Origin: Xylographa opegraphella
Lineage: Eukaryota
Reading direction: 5' to 3'
Length of the DNA: 64,000 bases
Assembly (NCBI GenBank): GCA_022813865.1
Contig: JALDZX010000012.1
Coordinates: 248,001-312,000 of the forward strand
Shown here: positions 36,980 to 43,934 of the stretch, one piece after another
Position numbering within the stretch: the stretch's first letter is position 1
How the letters are laid out: each line of letters starts with the position of its first letter
Position numbers and translations under genes: made by a program
Notes under the pieces: model-generated
What the model saw: only the letters and a program-made list of their open reading frames with translations
Databases searched by the model: none
Told to the model about the DNA's origin: nothing

Positions 36980-39900
36980 ATGCCCTCGGAAAATGGAAAA
37001 GCCCCAGCGGTCAAGTTATCGCTGCCTCTGGTACACCACTATCCTTTCTTCTTCCAGCCGTACTGCTTTATGCTAACAGGTTGCCCAGGAGTACCAGCAA
37101 GATCTGTTCTCCGAGCTCAGATCTGACGATGAGCTCGTTATATTGGCCAGAGGTCTCGGGCTCCTGCGCGTAGTCACAAACCTTCTCCACTCGTACGATG
37201 TGGCTGGCAATAATCTTATAGTGGTTGTTGGTGCCGACGAGAGAGAGAATGGCTGGATTGGCGAGGCACTTGCGGAACATGCTGCGATCAGCAGAGCCCC
37301 CTTAGCACGAGGGCTTAGCCAGGTCAACACGGATGTCATGAGTGTCGGTACGAGGTCAGAGAGCCCCAATATTTTGTGCTTATAAAAAGTGGCAATGCTC
37401 AACAATCCCAGGGAGAAGATGTACTCCCAAGGAGGTATCTTCAGCATCACCTCCCGAATACTTGTCGTGGACCTTTTGTCGAGTACGCTGGACACTCGTA
37501 ACCTCCGATGTTGATGCTCATCATGACAGGACTCCTGAACCCTGAATCCATCACGGGACTTATAGTACTGCATTCTGAAAGGTATACCCAAACACCCCCT
37601 TGCCCAAACGTACACTTTCACTAAGGGCACTGCCGCAGAATCGTTGCCACTTCACTCGAAGCATTCATTATACGTATCTACCGACAATTGAACAAGGAGG
37701 GATTTCTCAAAGCATTCTCTGACAATCCAGAACCATTTACAACTGGGTTTGCCCCCTTAGCAACCATGATGCGAAATCTCTTCTTAAGAAAGCCATCCTT
37801 ATGGCCTCGTTTTCACGTTACAGTCGCAAAGTCATTGGAGGGCCGGAAGCAGGCAGAAGTGATTGAGCTAGAAGTGCCAATGACAGAGAGTATGCGAGAC
37901 ATTCAAAATGCGATACTGGAGTGCGTGGAAGTCAGCATAAGTGAGCTCAAGAAGGCGGGCACTGGTCTTGAGTTGGACGACTGGACACTGGACAGCGCCC
38001 TACACAGAAGTTTCGATACTATAATTCGAAGACAGCTTGACCCAATTTGGCACAGAGTCAGTTACAGAACTCGACAAATCGTTAATGACCTGACAGTGTT
38101 GCGGAGTGTCCTGCAGTAGGTTCACTATGCAGAGTATTACCGGCTGTTTAGCTAACTCCAATGTTAGCGCACTTCTTACATATGACGCGGTATCATTCAA
38201 CAAGTACTTGGATACTATATTAGCAGCGCATCAGCCGCCCCCGGGGTCGACTCGGCAAAATCAATCACCGTGGCTTTTTTTAGATGCAGCGAATACCATA
38301 TTCGAGACGGCCAAGCGTCGAGTATATACAGGACAGGCTGATGATGCTGAGGCGCCAGGGGCAAATACAACTTTACCAGACTCTTTGCGACCTGTACTAG
38401 AAGAACAACCCAAATGGGCTCTCCTAGCAGAAGTCCTTCAGGAGATCGAGCGGGATGTATACTTCAATCCCACGATACGAGACGATTCAAATGGAACCAT
38501 TTTGATAATGTGCTCAGACCAGGGAACTTCAAGACAGATTCGAGAATATTTACAGACAAAAGACGTGACACGAGAGGACACTGCGGATGAGGAAATAATC
38601 GGAGACGATACTGTCAAATTACAGTCTTCGGCTACCTTCATGATGCGAAAAAAGCTACGCAGTTACTTGGGTTGGAAGAAGGACTTTGCTAGAGTTAGCG
38701 CGTCGCTCTTCCACGAGAATCAAAAGGCGTTGGAAAGCTTCACTGATCAGAGGGGCGTGAATGGATATCGAGGCAAGGGTCCACCTAACAAGCGACGCAG
38801 GATTCGAGGCGGTTCTGCGGCATTAGCAGGTGCTGGTAGGCCTATTAGTGGCACTCTACAAATTGCAGAGGAAAAATCTTCGCAAGTAGATAAGCTTATG
38901 GCAGATATACAGCCAGATGAAGCAGACGCCATGCAAAGAGAAGAAGTTGCCGTTGACATGCTTGAAGATATGGAAGATTATTTCGAGTTGCACGAAATGC
39001 AGGACCTCGTCGTCGTCCATCCTTATGATGGCGATATGGACGAACATCTCTTGGAAGAAGTGAGGCCACGGTATGTGATCATGTATGAACCGGATGCTGC
39101 ATTTATCCGACGAGTCGAGGTATATCGGAGCTCTCACAACGACAGAGGAGTCAGAGTATACTTTATGTACTATGGTGGTTCCGTTGAAGAACAAAGATAC
39201 TTGAGCGCGGTTCGAAAGGAGAAAGATGCATTTACCAGGTTAATCAAAGAAAAGGGGGTGAGTGGACTGAGGGCTTAGTAATTATACGGAATTAGGCTAA
39301 CTTTTACACAGAACATGGCTGTAATACTCACCCTGGAAGGTAAAGGCCCAGATGACCCGCAAGAGCAGTTTCTACGTACTGTAAACACCAGGATTGCTGG
39401 TGGTGGCCGTTTGGCTGCGACGGCTGAGCCGCCCCGTGTTGTCGTTGACGTCCGCGAGTTCCGCAGTTCTCTTCCGTCACTTCTGCACGGGCGCAGTATG
39501 GTTGTCATACCATGTATGCTCACGGTCGGAGATTATGTCCTCAGTCCTACGATATGTATTGAAAGGAAATCAGTACGCGATCTTATCTCGTCGTTCAAGA
39601 ACGGGCGTCTGTTCAATCAAGCAGAAACAATGCTGCAGCATTACAAGCATCCCATGCTCCTGATTGAATTCGACCAAAACAAGTCCTTCACTCTCGACCC
39701 ATTCGCCGAACACACAACGGCCATCGCCACAGCGGCGAACCCCTCGGACCTGCAGTCTCGGCTCGTACTCCTTACACTTGCGTTCCCCCGCCTCAAAGTG
39801 ATCTGGTCATCATCGCCATACCAGACTGCCGAAATCTTCGAAGAGTTGAAGAAGAACCAAGAAGAACCTGATCCGATCAAGGCAGTGCAGATTGGTCTCA

Positions 39901-40124
39901 ATGCAGGCGAAGATCCAAATGACCAGAGCTTCAATCAGACTCCACAGGATATGCTGAGGGCAGTACCGGGTATTACTGCGAAGAATATGAATAGAATTAC
40001 GCTCGAGGTCGACAATATCCTAGAAGTCAGCAATCTGGATGAGGGGACGCTTAATGACTTGGTTGGGAAGGAGGCTGGTCGGCAAGTATACAGATTCTTC
40101 AACAAGAGCGTTTTCGATGATTAG
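36980..40124 (+). CDS. RAD1: XPF/Rad1 (S. pombe Rad16) structure-specific endonuclease
   Basis: LSLPL|EYQQDLF, ITSRILVVDLL, LEEQPKW, YGGSVEEQRYL, VDVREFRSSLP, GDYVL..ICIERKS (ERKS nuclease motif); several introns. Confidence 0.95.
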
Positions 40125-40657
40125 GATGTCGGTCAAAACCGACCAACTCATATCAAAGATGACTGCCCCACACATGGTTTCTGTATCATGGAGTCTTAGT
40201 CCGGTTTAAGGGTGTCCAGCCTATTCTTGGCCCGGACAGATGATCGAGTTCCTTTCCGAGCCAGGAAAAAATAACCTCTTGGGCGGCTGCAAAGGAGATT
40301 TCATCGATCTCATAAAGTCCTTCGGTATGGGACTCACGAAATCAGACGACTTGATGATGATGACAGTGTTATTGATCAAGAAACAAGCAGTATTCAAACC
40401 ACAGAATTGGACCTTTAAATAAAGCTGGCTATATATGTTCACCAAAGGAGCATTTATAGGTATACCAGAAAGTTACGGACTGTCACCAATTTTGGTCATT
40501 GAGACTCTTGTAAAGTGTTGCTCGATTGACATGCCGTTCATTTCATCTAACGAGCTGTACTCCAAAATTAACGCCTGAAAGTGCATTTATACGGTCAGAA
40601 TCCTCCCATAGCCACTATCTGCGAGCCTATTGCCACGAATCTCTTGAGGCCCCAGCT

Positions 40658-41385
40658 TTAGATCTCATCCACATCGATCTCTTTCTCGTCGCTGCTGTCA
40701 TCCCTGTCCTCGTCGAACTCCACATTGTCATCAAGACCCTCGTGGCCGTACCTGAGATTCCCCTGTCAGCAATCCCGTCCATTACGCAGAGGCTTGCCCT
40801 AGCTGCAGCTGAGTTCATGAGCACATACGTATCCGTTTCATTGATCTTCGCACTCTCGGGCAACTCCCCGTATGCCTTCAGACTTCTCGCCTCGTCCGCG
40901 CTATACTTCAGTATCACGTCCCCTTTCTCGTCTTGGTAGTCCCGCAGCGAGAGCAGGATAATGTCGCCCTGGTTGATCCACACCTTCTTGCGCAGCTTGC
41001 CGCGGATGTGCGCAAGGCGCTTCTCGCCATCGAAGCAGAGCGCTTCAAGGCGGCCGTTACCAAGCATCTTTATAACTTGAGCGTATTCTTTAGAGAGCAG
41101 AAAATGTTAATAAATATTGATATGGATGGTGGCCTAGGTAGGGAGACAGACCTTGGCCTTCTTCTTTGAAGGTTAGTTCGCGCTTCTCGTTGTCGTTCTC
41201 GTTCTTCCCTCGACGCCTATTTTTACCTCCCTATGTAGCATGATAAGTTAGCTATTTGTTAATATAAGGACCCTCCGAGTGTGCTTGAGAGTAAAGTTGT
41301 GTAGGTGGCGCATTTCAGGGTTGTGAAGTTGTGTGTGCTGCTGCGGAATAGAGATATTTCCAACCTTTCCCTTATTCTTAGGCAT
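40658..41385 (-). CDS. TIF11: Translation initiation factor eIF1A
   Basis: [49 protein letters not shown]...[22 protein letters not shown]...IDVDEI; three introns. Confidence 0.97.
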
Positions 41386-41809
41386 ATTGGTGGTTTACAA
41401 GCGTATGCACCAAGAGTAGTACTGCTGTATCAATATTGGTGCGTTTCGGTAATGTTGATAGATCGTTGAAGACGAGGGAATTATGTGCTGTCCGAGTCAG
41501 TGACAACAATAATGAAATGCGGGACAGTGGGGTGAGCCTCCGCCGCAGCTAGCCTCTAAGTGGCTAGTAGGGCTAGCGCTCTTTGTCAAACCTTTCCACA
41601 AATTCCATGTCTACGGAGTACTGCGTTGTTGTACCACACTCGCCACCAAATTTATTTGTCTCCCAAACTACACTGACCGCAGGGTAGTGTATGCGTTATG
41701 CTTCAGAATAACCAGGCTTAGCCCGAGTTCATTATTGCTGCTTGGCACATGAGCCTACTGTTCATGGAGCTTAGGATCTTGAATGGATGAATAATGATAC
41801 ATTGAATCC

Positions 41810-42277
41810 ATGGCAACCAAAGCAAAAGTGTCACCATTCAAGACCAAATTGCTCAAGATCTCCGGTCTGACCGTCTGCCGAGCTGCATATTCACCCGCCC
41901 ATACGCCTCCGTTCGTGGCTGCCGCCATCTTGAGTGAACCCAACCACATCTTGTATCCACCGACAAAAAAACGATATGATACCAGGAGCCGGGAGACCTT
42001 ATGGTGGAACGTTACATCGAACACCATGTCAACGGTGAAGAAGGTTATGAGGTCATGGAACAATAGGAGAATGCGGAGAGCGATCATAGAGGCATTGGCG
42101 ACTTGTGGACTCGATGCAGAAGGGAAGCCTGCTGCAGGAGATGGCGAACGGCGAGCGCAGGGGCTGAAAGGGACCTTGATCATTCATGCGCTGCCGATCA
42201 TCCTTTCTACTAAGTTCGTGGACGTGAAGCTGCAGATGGAGTTGCTCATAAGAGATCTGATACAGCGCGGGAGTTGA
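41810..42277 (+). CDS. Basic 155-aa protein, RnpA (bacterial RNase P protein)-like, possibly mitochondrial
   Basis: Single-exon ORF with ATG; no D/E in the first 42 residues; KKVMRSWNNRRMRRAIIE and GTLIIHA resemble the RnpA RNR helix and following strand (by-eye comparison). Confidence 0.6.
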   Translation: MATKAKVSPFKTKLLKISGLTVCRAAYSPAHTPPFVAAAILSEPNHILYPPTKKRYDTRSRETLWWNVTSNTMSTVKKVMRSWNNRRMRRAIIEALATCGLDAEGKPAAGDGERRAQGLKGTLIIHALPIILSTKFVDVKLQMELLIRDLIQRGS

Positions 42278-42587
42278 GATATCCTGCTACACTTTCTCCT
42301 GATAACACAGGCGATTATAAAAACCCGGGTTATAGACCTACAGCTCTACAATGGAAGAAGTGAATATCATATCATCTGAAGCGAGAGCTCTAGAAGGCTA
42401 CGATAGAGTGTAGTTACAGTAATTGATGTCGGTCATGCCATTATTGTTTTTCGATAATCCCTGCTCGCTTCTGCAACTTGTGCAACGCGACATCTTTAGA
42501 CAAAGCAGCTTCAACCAGCATCCCAACTTGACGATTCAGTCTCACAGTCGCAAACCACAGTCCGTACAACCTCAATATTATGACACG

Positions 42588-43934
42588 ATGCTAATCTCCC
42601 TCACTGTCGGCAAAGTCGACGCCGGTGTCGCTGTTCTCCTCACAGAGGACAAAAGACTTGTACACCCTCCCTTCCAACCATTCACCAGACCCCAAACTAA
42701 TCCTTCCCTCCAGATCGAGTTCCCCTCCATCCTGCTCCCTCCTTCCATCTCCTCTGGTAGCATCGTCGACATCACCGTCTCGCGCAACCACGCCTCCGAA
42801 TCCGCTGCCCAAACCGCCTTCCACGACCTCCAAACCTCCATCTACACATCCTATGGCCTCCACTCCCCCGCAACCCCCACCCTCCGCTGCCGCAACGCGA
42901 CGCAAACCTCCGTCGTGCTCGAATGGGACCCCATCTCTCTCGCGACCGCGTCGCTGCGCTCGCTCTCCCTGTTCCGCAATGGCAGTAAAGCCGGCGCGAT
43001 TCCGCGGCCGCTGGAGATCACCAGCACGAAGATCAGCGGCCTGGCCATTGATACCGAGTATGTCTTTCACCTAGTGCTGCGCACGAGTGCGGGTACGTAT
43101 ACCAGCGAGAAGCTACGCGTGCGGACACACAAGATGACGGATCTGACGGGCATCACCGTTACGCCCGGGGTGCTGGCGGCGCCATTGCGTTACAGCCTCG
43201 CTGGGGCAGTAGAACGCATTGGCGGTAAAATCGTGGACACTGTGCGGATCGACACGACGCATTTCGTGTGTACGGAGGGGAGGGGTCGCGAATGGGAGCG
43301 CGCGATGGAGATGAACATCCCCGTTGTGCGGCCGGAGTGGGTGGAGGGCTGCGAGCGGGAGGGTAGGATTGTGGGCGTGAGAGGCTACTATCTGAATGCG
43401 GACCCGCGGTTGAGGCAAGTGGGTCAAGGAGTCGGCGTGCAGGGCTCGGGCCAGCAGCGGCGGACGGAAAGCCAGACGAGTATCAAGCGGGCGGCGCCTG
43501 CGCTGCAGACTGGCGATGGGAGCAAGCAGGACTTGGGGCCTTCAACTGAGGGTACGGATACGTCGGGCATAAGCCCAGGGACGGCTGTCAACGGGCAGCA
43601 GAGCGGGAAGATGGAGGTGATGCGGGAGCCGCCCACGCCCCCGGCAAAAGACAAGCAACCCGATACGGCGTCGGTGCTGACGGTCAATTCGCTTCCGGCT
43701 TCGACAACGGAAGATGAGGGCGAGGATGAGGACGAGGCTGGTGCCACGCGAGGGAACGACGGTCATCAGCATCAAGCCCCGCAGCCGAGGGACTTAGTGC
43801 AATCGCCATTCGACCAAGGGCATACGTCCCCGACTCGGCTTCCAGTCCGTGGAATGGAGACACCGGCCGTGGATGACAAGAGCAAAGCGAGGCAAATGAG
43901 CGATGGGGGCAGCTTTAGCGAGGTGGCACTTTAG
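42588..43934 (+). CDS. CHS5: Exomer subunit Chs5 (FN3 + BRCT)
   Basis: MLISLTVGKVDAGVAVLLTEDKRL|IEFPSILLP, NATQTSVVLEWDP, RTHKMTDLTGITV, IDTTHFVCTEG, IPVVRPEWV; in-frame intron 42660-42713. Confidence 0.95.
   Translation: MLISLTVGKVDAGVAVLLTEDKRLVHPPFQPFTRPQTNPSLQIEFPSILLPPSISSGSIVDITVSRNHASESAAQTAFHDLQTSIYTSYGLHSPATPTLRCRNATQTSVVLEWDPISLATASLRSLSLFRNGSKAGAIPRPLEITSTKISGLAIDTEYVFHLVLRTSAGTYTSEKLRVRTHKMTDLTGITVTPGVLAAPLRYSLAGAVERIGGKIVDTVRIDTTHFVCTEGRGREWERAMEMNIPVVRPEWVEGCEREGRIVGVRGYYLNADPRLRQVGQGVGVQGSGQQRRTESQTSIKRAAPALQTGDGSKQDLGPSTEGTDTSGISPGTAVNGQQSGKMEVMREPPTPPAKDKQPDTASVLTVNSLPASTTEDEGEDEDEAGATRGNDGHQHQAPQPRDLVQSPFDQGHTSPTRLPVRGMETPAVDDKSKARQMSDGGSFSEVAL

Follow-up and report, generated by a model that had tools for sequence, protein, structure and literature searches.

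A nuclear-encoded, divergent homolog of bacterial RnpA in Xylographa opegraphella and other filamentous ascomycetes, a candidate protein cofactor of mitochondrial RNase P

As of 2012, no protein of an organellar RNA-based ribonuclease P (RNase P) had been identified except Rpm2 of Saccharomyces cerevisiae, and Rpm2 is described as unrelated to other RNase P proteins and confined to budding yeasts (passages of a 2012 review, PMC3790967). According to the same passages, knowledge of the proteins of fungal mitochondrial RNase P is scarce, the composition of the enzyme in several clades was unidentified as of 2012, and the mitochondrial RNase P purified from Aspergillus nidulans contained seven unidentified polypeptides of 16-55 kDa. 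Fungi are also among the few groups that have no PRORP (passages of a 2024 review, PMC10941002, and of PMC3858429). The RNase P RNA gene, rnpB, has been reported in the mitochondrial DNA (mtDNA) of Aspergillus and in that of every zygomycete sequenced up to 2012 (PMC3790967, passages as above), as well as in the mtDNA of the Pleosporales genus Bipolaris and of Sclerotinia. Outside the fungi, a P protein of bacterial type that is encoded in the nucleus of Ostreococcus tauri works with an organellar P RNA and complements Escherichia coli, as cited in passages of PMC4919922 and PMC3858429. No description of a fungal RnpA-type protein was found in the full-text literature and the passages of RNase P reviews covered, which do not extend to Lechner et al. 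2015, Seif et al. 2003/2005 and Lai et al. 2011. Here we analyzed a 64,000-nucleotide stretch of DNA from Xylographa opegraphella (hereafter the window; GenBank assembly GCA_022813865.1, contig JALDZX010000012.1, positions 248,001 to 312,000 of the forward strand) and describe a gene in it for a 155-residue protein that resembles bacterial RnpA. An earlier note on this DNA, made from the sequence alone, had stated that Rpm2 is unrelated to RnpA and that many ascomycete mtDNAs carry rnpB; the reviews bear out this background, placing rnpB in many fungal mtDNAs.

The gene occupies positions 41810..42277 of the forward strand and was read from the sequence and its translation as a complete intronless open reading frame (ORF) of 155 codons and a stop, with an in-frame TGA five codons 5' of the ATG. 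As the earlier note had described, no acidic residue occurs among the first 42 amino acids (E43 is the first), and LWWNVTS (residues 64-70) is followed by two long blocks, VMRSWNNRRMRRAIIE (residues 79-94) and GTLIIHALPIILSTKFVDVKLQMELLIR (residues 121-148). An antisense ORF encoding 142 amino acids (41755..42183, reverse strand) overlaps most of the gene and is probably a shadow ORF.

Homologs of the protein were identified by an exhaustive phmmer search of 1.84 billion cluster representatives with the window protein as query. The search returned 311 representatives at an expectation value (E) <=1e-3 and 73 at E<=1e-10, and the matches typically cover query residues about 13-153. A word-indexed search revealed four orthologs of 153-155 amino acids with 71-82% identity, of which three are hypothetical proteins of Xylographa species; in the alignment of the Xylographa orthologs, on average 85% of columns are identical. 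Word-indexed searches gave 5, 40 and 4 hits. The named relatives come from Xylographa, Aspergillus, many Pleosporales and Patellaria, and all of them are labelled hypothetical or uncharacterized. Judged from the 22 named proteins on which its taxonomic range rests, the family is widespread in filamentous ascomycetes.

Conservation was analyzed in an alignment of 100 family members, to which the column counts below refer. The sole invariant column is G121 (100/100). Other well-conserved positions include the LWW motif (L64 in 96, W65 in 99 and W66 in 84 members), three arginines (R81 in 99, R86 in 89 and R87 in 95), A91 (89) and L96 (95), and the loop residues G100 (96), D102 (88) and G105 (99); the position of Y27 is occupied by Y, F or W in 91 members. 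The ORF encodes a real, conserved gene. The idea that it is a chance ORF is refuted by this conservation, with 311 homologous representatives, strongly conserved columns and a confidently predicted fold all speaking against it, and we give it practically no credence. Four representatives, P0089 (395 aa), P0090 (423 aa), P0052 (296 aa) and P0136 (297 aa), are two to three times as long as the domain and may owe their length to fusions, long tails or errors in gene models. Family members have very basic C-terminal tails (24.4% K/R).

The bacterial reference set was composed of the RnpA genes of 20 named genomes, which were fetched with the Pfam family PF00825 (Ribonuclease_P), gave one match above the cut-off in each of the 20 genomes, and were translated and aligned. 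Using hhalign, we aligned the family alignment to these 20 sequences with a probability of 86.8% (P 4.3e-6, score 40.8, 69 columns); in control comparisons the reversed template scored 12.6, and the maximum among 40 block-shuffled templates was 18.8. The alignment pairs query residues 68-155 with the third strand, the RNR helix, the fourth strand and the last helix of RnpA, and it leaves 17 Gly-rich residues of the query (105-121, GKPAAGDGERRAQGLKG) unmatched in the bacterial template. A hidden Markov model (HMM) of bacterial RnpA detected 39 of 184 family proteins at E<=0.05 and five at E<=1e-3, whereas none of the 184 reversed sequences reached E<=0.05 (best E 1.2). When the 100 members were scanned singly, PF00825 was the only Pfam family matched by more than one of them (4/100). 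Among 149 scanned representatives, P0035 from Patellaria atrata (22.9 bits, profile positions 31-108 of 109) is the only one over the curated PF00825 cut-off of 22.3 bits, and P0152 (22.0 bits), P0072 (15.8 bits) and P0095 (14.4 bits) fall below it. The window protein itself misses the cut-off and is filed as a divergent RnpA homolog, not as a Pfam-threshold member. Judged by sequence, the resemblance to RnpA exceeds chance at the level of the family only.

These results bear on two proposals of the earlier note. It had aligned both long blocks with RnpA, with a Gly-rich insertion between them; hhalign recovered the two blocks in the proposed register together with the insertion. It had also suggested a comparison with the PF00825 profile, which matches several family members, one of them over the cut-off, and does not match the window protein taken alone.

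An AlphaFold2 model based on the alignment of 100 members has a mean predicted local distance difference test score (pLDDT) of 92.5 and a predicted template modelling score of 0.84. Its elements are, in order, strands 13-15 and 23-28, helices 35-42 and 49-58, strand 64-69, helix 78-98, strand 121-127, and helices 129-132 and 136-154. In a Foldseek search against PDB, bacterial RNase P proteins occupy ranks 1-7, 9, 10 and 18-20, the best match being 6d1r (E 0.033, probability 0.99, target template modelling score 0.61). We also compared the model by VIA-align with 48,161 representative chains in a wide run independent of Foldseek, and with 832 Foldseek-ranked chains in a second look. The wide run ranked Thermotoga maritima RnpA first (Z 8.9, root-mean-square deviation (rmsd) 2.8 A, 95 aligned of 109); RnpA of Staphylococcus aureus came second with Z 8.5 and that of E. 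coli fourth with Z 6.7. In the second look RnpA took ranks 1-8, 10 and 11, among them Bacillus subtilis 1a6f with Z 8.9 over 98 aligned residues (15% identity) and chain 3q1q_A of the holoenzyme with Z 8.6. As top matches, RnpA chains reach Z 7.5-8.9 with rmsd of 2.8-3.6 over 93-99 aligned residues, and the alignments span the model from residue 7 or 8 to residue 154 or 155. The comparison of a model with RnpA structures that the earlier note had suggested therefore puts RnpA in the top ranks, though with Foldseek E-values above 1e-3.

Several results speak against homology to RnpA. Taken alone, the window protein matched no Pfam or NCBIfam family at E<=10, gave only noise among PDB sequences (for example, fructose bisphosphatase at E 0.44), and reached E 9.2 against the HMM of the 20 bacterial RnpA sequences. 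HMM profiles of five and of 100 family members found no RnpA chain among PDB sequences. In the proposed register the 16-residue helix block has 2-6 of 16 identities to the 20 bacterial sequences, which as a pairwise resemblance is not significant on its own. Residues 1-67 were not aligned with confidence by hhalign either at low mact or in global mode (global probability 43.6%), and the N-terminal half arranges its elements (strand, strand, helix, helix, strand) differently from RnpA. Finally, Foldseek gave no match in PDB at E<=1e-3, and best Z values of 7-8 are common in VIA-align for models that have no true match.

An alternative is that the protein converged on a generic alpha-beta fold class, as found in EF-G, Lon, RNase PH and the 5' sensor of RNase E, and carries a basic helix without RnpA ancestry. 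The weak Foldseek E-values and the lack of a sequence alignment for the N-terminal half fit this explanation, as does the finding that unrelated chains of the fold class reach Z 5-6.8; in the wide run the best of them, the 5'-sensor region of RNase E, has Z 6.8 over 78 aligned residues. However, in the second look RnpA stands about 2 Z units over the first unrelated chain and aligns over 93-99 residues versus 78, motif residues are shared in register, and there is an independent sequence signal, with one member over the Pfam cut-off and an hhalign score well over the null controls. We therefore regard convergence as improbable. Structure alone would not settle homology to RnpA; the predicted structure together with the independent sequence signal does so. 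Because the structural matches and the profile-level signal agree in this way, we conclude that the 155-residue protein is very probably a divergent homolog of bacterial RnpA, and the core claim of the earlier note is supported by both kinds of evidence.

The Pop5, Pop8 and Rpp14 subunits of nuclear RNase P and MRP share an RnpA-like fold, and subunits of the Pop8 type diverge quickly. By this general similarity of fold class, the protein might be taken for a nuclear subunit of this kind, an identity that we consider highly improbable. The window protein, the 100 members and the 149 representatives gave no Pfam match to families of such subunits, and the profiles of five and of 100 members found neither a nuclear RNase P chain nor a mitoribosomal one among PDB sequences. 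Bacterial RnpA tops all three structure rankings, and it is the bacterial family, RNR helix included, to which the sequence signal points. Pop5, Pop8 and Rpp14 are absent among the best 50 chains of each VIA-align run and among the Foldseek matches listed; a weaker match is possible.

In the 20 bacterial sequences the RNR motif reads A (19), V (14), x, R (20), N (17), R (14), x, K/R (19), R (20), x, L/I, K/R (20). In the hhalign register, R81 of the fungal protein pairs with the first Arg of the bacterial RNR, R86 with the invariant bacterial Arg, and R89 with the last basic position; their partners are the three positions that are K or R in 20/20 bacterial sequences. The three positions are K or R in 100, 97 and 88 of the 100 members, respectively. 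The Asn and the second Arg of the motif are replaced in most members, its Lys position is variable in the fungal family, and R87 is an extra basic residue (K/R in 99/100). As far as the aligned residues tell, the family seems to keep most of the RNR surface. Conserved aromatic residues on two central strands (Y27, W65 and W66) may line the leader-binding cleft.

Compared with bacterial RnpA (PF00825; 1a6f, 1nz0, 6d1r, 2ljp, 3q1q), the fungal protein is likewise small and basic and has the same overall fold, with Z up to 8.9. At the profile level its strand, Arg-rich helix, strand and C-terminal helix follow one another as they do in RnpA, and the family keeps the three universal basic positions of the RNR motif. 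In contrast to bacterial RnpA, it is encoded in a eukaryotic nucleus and scores under the Pfam threshold, its RNR core is R-S-W instead of R-N-R, and the LWW strand motif is specific to the fungal family. About 17 residues have no equivalent in the bacterial protein; they make up most of a loop that begins with a conserved G-x-D-x-x-G. The N-terminal half also differs, because two helices separate its second strand from its third; bacterial RnpA has a helix before the first strand.

Among eukaryotic systems, the closest parallel is the P protein of O. tauri, which is also the product of a nuclear RnpA-type gene in a eukaryote whose organelle genomes, according to the passages cited above, encode bacterial-type P RNA. 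It is the precedent for the role proposed here; its function has been shown, and a corresponding role of the fungal protein would follow by analogy. With Rpm2 the protein would share the role of a nuclear-encoded partner of an mtDNA-encoded RNase P RNA, whereas its length of 155 residues and RnpA-like nature set it apart from Rpm2 as described. The proposed role in 5' processing of mitochondrial pre-tRNAs is the one that PRORP plays in most other eukaryotes. The protein is not itself a PRORP, as it matches no Pfam family (neither a pentatricopeptide repeat (PPR) nor a nuclease family) and, at 155 residues, is too short to hold PPR repeats and an NYN metallonuclease.

Our preferred reading is that the protein serves as an imported cofactor of mitochondrial RNase P together with the mtDNA-encoded rnpB RNA, and we give it a probability of roughly 0.55. 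The nuclear-encoded protein would be imported into mitochondria and would join the rnpB RNA as the cofactor of an RNase P ribonucleoprotein, where its Arg-rich helix (residues 78-98) may bind the catalytic domain of the P RNA as in bacterial RnpA. The gene, its conservation, the RnpA fold and the profile-level homology, key basic residues included, are what the analysis shows; mitochondrial location, RNA partner and activity are what we infer. The cofactor role is the simplest one because a conserved RnpA homolog is present in fungi that have an RNA-based mitochondrial RNase P and lack other known protein subunits. The rnpB reports for Aspergillus and Bipolaris support it, since relatives of both taxa carry the family.

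The earlier note had taken the first 42 residues to be presequence-like, and this part of its account did not hold. Residues 13-60 are conserved across the family and modelled as folded, with pLDDT of 92-97 in blocks of ten over residues 11-60, and they are therefore part of the folded domain and not a presequence. Only about 12 residues are free to act as a mitochondrial targeting signal. The part of the 100 members that precedes residue 20 (median length 17.5) contains 18.1% K/R and 2.1% D/E, compared with 16.3% and 9.6% in the domain body, and 74 members have no D/E in their first 20 residues. These basic N-termini are compatible with a short mitochondrial signal.

The wider distribution of the family was approached through the ESM Atlas, which we treat as a lead only. 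Of the 30 nearest named clusters, 29 belong to the PF00825 set. The closest is mostly from Basidiomycota (98 members, proteins of 286 aa, PF00825 on 18%, score 0.91), and another is from Zoopagomycota (77 members, proteins of 254 aa, PF00825 on 82%, score 0.84). They suggest that a nuclear RnpA family extends across the fungi and that its members outside the filamentous ascomycetes are longer. As a lead, the Zoopagomycota cluster fits an RnpA of ancestral fungi that remained similar to the bacterial protein wherever the P RNA remained bacteria-like too. The cluster from Basidiomycota pulls in the opposite direction, as it sits uneasily with the rarity of rnpB in that group.

A number of points count against the cofactor role. 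About 12 residues before the fold are short for a presequence, and the basic character of the N-terminus says little, because the family proteins are basic throughout, with a median net charge of +17. Within the RNR motif, Asn is replaced by Ser in 64 of the 100 members and the second Arg by Trp in 82. The distribution of rnpB is patchy in ascomycetes (PMC3790967, passages as above); the gene is uncommon in basidiomycetes, where it has been reported in a few, and yet the nearest named Atlas cluster is mostly from this group. In the literature we found no report of rnpB in Xylographa mtDNA. Finally, PDB entry 6ov1 mentions in its title that S. aureus RnpA has an mRNA-degradation activity, and for this reason the RnpA fold need not imply work in RNase P alone.

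An alternative is a true RnpA homolog that is no longer part of RNase P and acts, in mitochondria or elsewhere, as a general or specialized RNA-binding protein in processing, RNA stability or ribosome biogenesis. The fold and the Arg-rich helix indicate RNA binding and not a particular partner, two RNR positions have changed and a family-specific conserved loop has been added, the family looks broad (311 clusters, with the Basidiomycota relatives as a lead) and rnpB is patchy, and the 6ov1 title cites mRNA degradation by an RnpA. Nevertheless, we consider this alternative rather unlikely. The three basic positions that are K or R in all 20 bacterial RnpA sequences have been retained, and fungi have no PRORP and, in the review passages cited above, no other known candidate protein outside the budding yeasts. 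The family profile matches no solved chain at a meaningful E-value, so the protein is not a resolved mitoribosomal protein, provided that the family occurs at all in those fungi whose mitoribosomes have been solved.

The genomic setting of the gene was described using Pfam annotation of its neighbors. The genes that flank it encode eIF-1a, a CHS5-type protein, an ERCC4 nuclease and a C5 DNA methylase, which are all ordinary eukaryotic nuclear genes; on this basis the gene is nuclear, as the earlier note had claimed. The coordinates of the neighbors and of the protein's segments are listed in Table 1. The methylase ORF may be a single exon of a larger fungal DNA methyltransferase gene. An ORF of 390 amino acids without a Pfam match (38106..39275, forward strand) precedes the ERCC4 ORF on the same strand, and both may belong as exons to a single gene for a structure-specific endonuclease. 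The CHS5 ORF likely contains a short intron near 42650-42715, where the frame shifts.

Table 1. Segments of the RnpA-like protein and neighboring genes, in positions of the window.
Feature	Positions	Strand	Basis or remark
Residues 1-12, basic, poorly conserved N-terminal tail	41810..41845	+	pLDDT 68 for residues 1-10
Residues 13-60, N-terminal half of the fold	41846..41989	+	Strands 13-15, 23-28; helices 35-42, 49-58
Residues 64-69, LWW strand	41999..42016	+	Model strand; L64, W65, W66 conserved
Residues 78-98, Arg-rich helix, predicted counterpart of the RNR helix	42041..42103	+	Model helix; hhalign pairing
Residues 99-120, loop with conserved start (G100, D102, G105), mostly an insertion relative to RnpA	42104..42169	+	pLDDT 76 for residues 111-120
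Residues 121-154, strand, short helix and C-terminal helix, predicted to correspond to the final strand and helix of RnpA	42170..42271	+	Model; hhalign
eIF-1a exon	40627..41067	-	Immediate neighbor of the RnpA-like gene
CHS5-type protein (CHS5_N, fn3_2, BRCT)	about 42582..43931	+	Immediate neighbor of the RnpA-like gene
ERCC4 nuclease-domain ORF	39315..40121	+	E 2.2e-29
C5 cytosine methylase ORF, 696 aa	44867..46957	-	Residues 533-694 match the C-5 cytosine DNA methylase family, E 7.4e-29

The protein is a divergent member of the known RnpA family in an unreported setting and not a new kind of system. Its homology is partly latent in databases, because automatic Pfam tagging already labels some fungal relatives as Ribonuclease_P. 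Extending the cofactor role, we tentatively put forward the possibility that fungi other than budding yeasts kept a full two-part mitochondrial RNase P of the bacterial type, with the family inherited from the mitochondrial ancestor and diverging alongside degenerating mitochondrial P RNAs, and with Rpm2 as a late replacement in budding yeasts. If so, the family would supply the protein subunit that has long been missing, which may be the 16-kDa polypeptide of the purified A. nidulans enzyme, and in lineages without a recognizable mitochondrial rnpB the family would signal either an overlooked RNA partner or a new role.

The protein make-up of mitochondrial RNase P in fungi beyond the budding yeasts is an acknowledged gap (PMC3790967, passages as above), and a conserved nuclear gene of the RnpA type is a concrete candidate to fill it. 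Should the family also be present where rnpB is absent, it would point to a second function of the RnpA fold in eukaryotes. If the cofactor role is confirmed, the bacterial two-subunit design would have survived in fungal mitochondria, and these fungi would offer a natural series of reduced P RNAs co-evolving with their protein.

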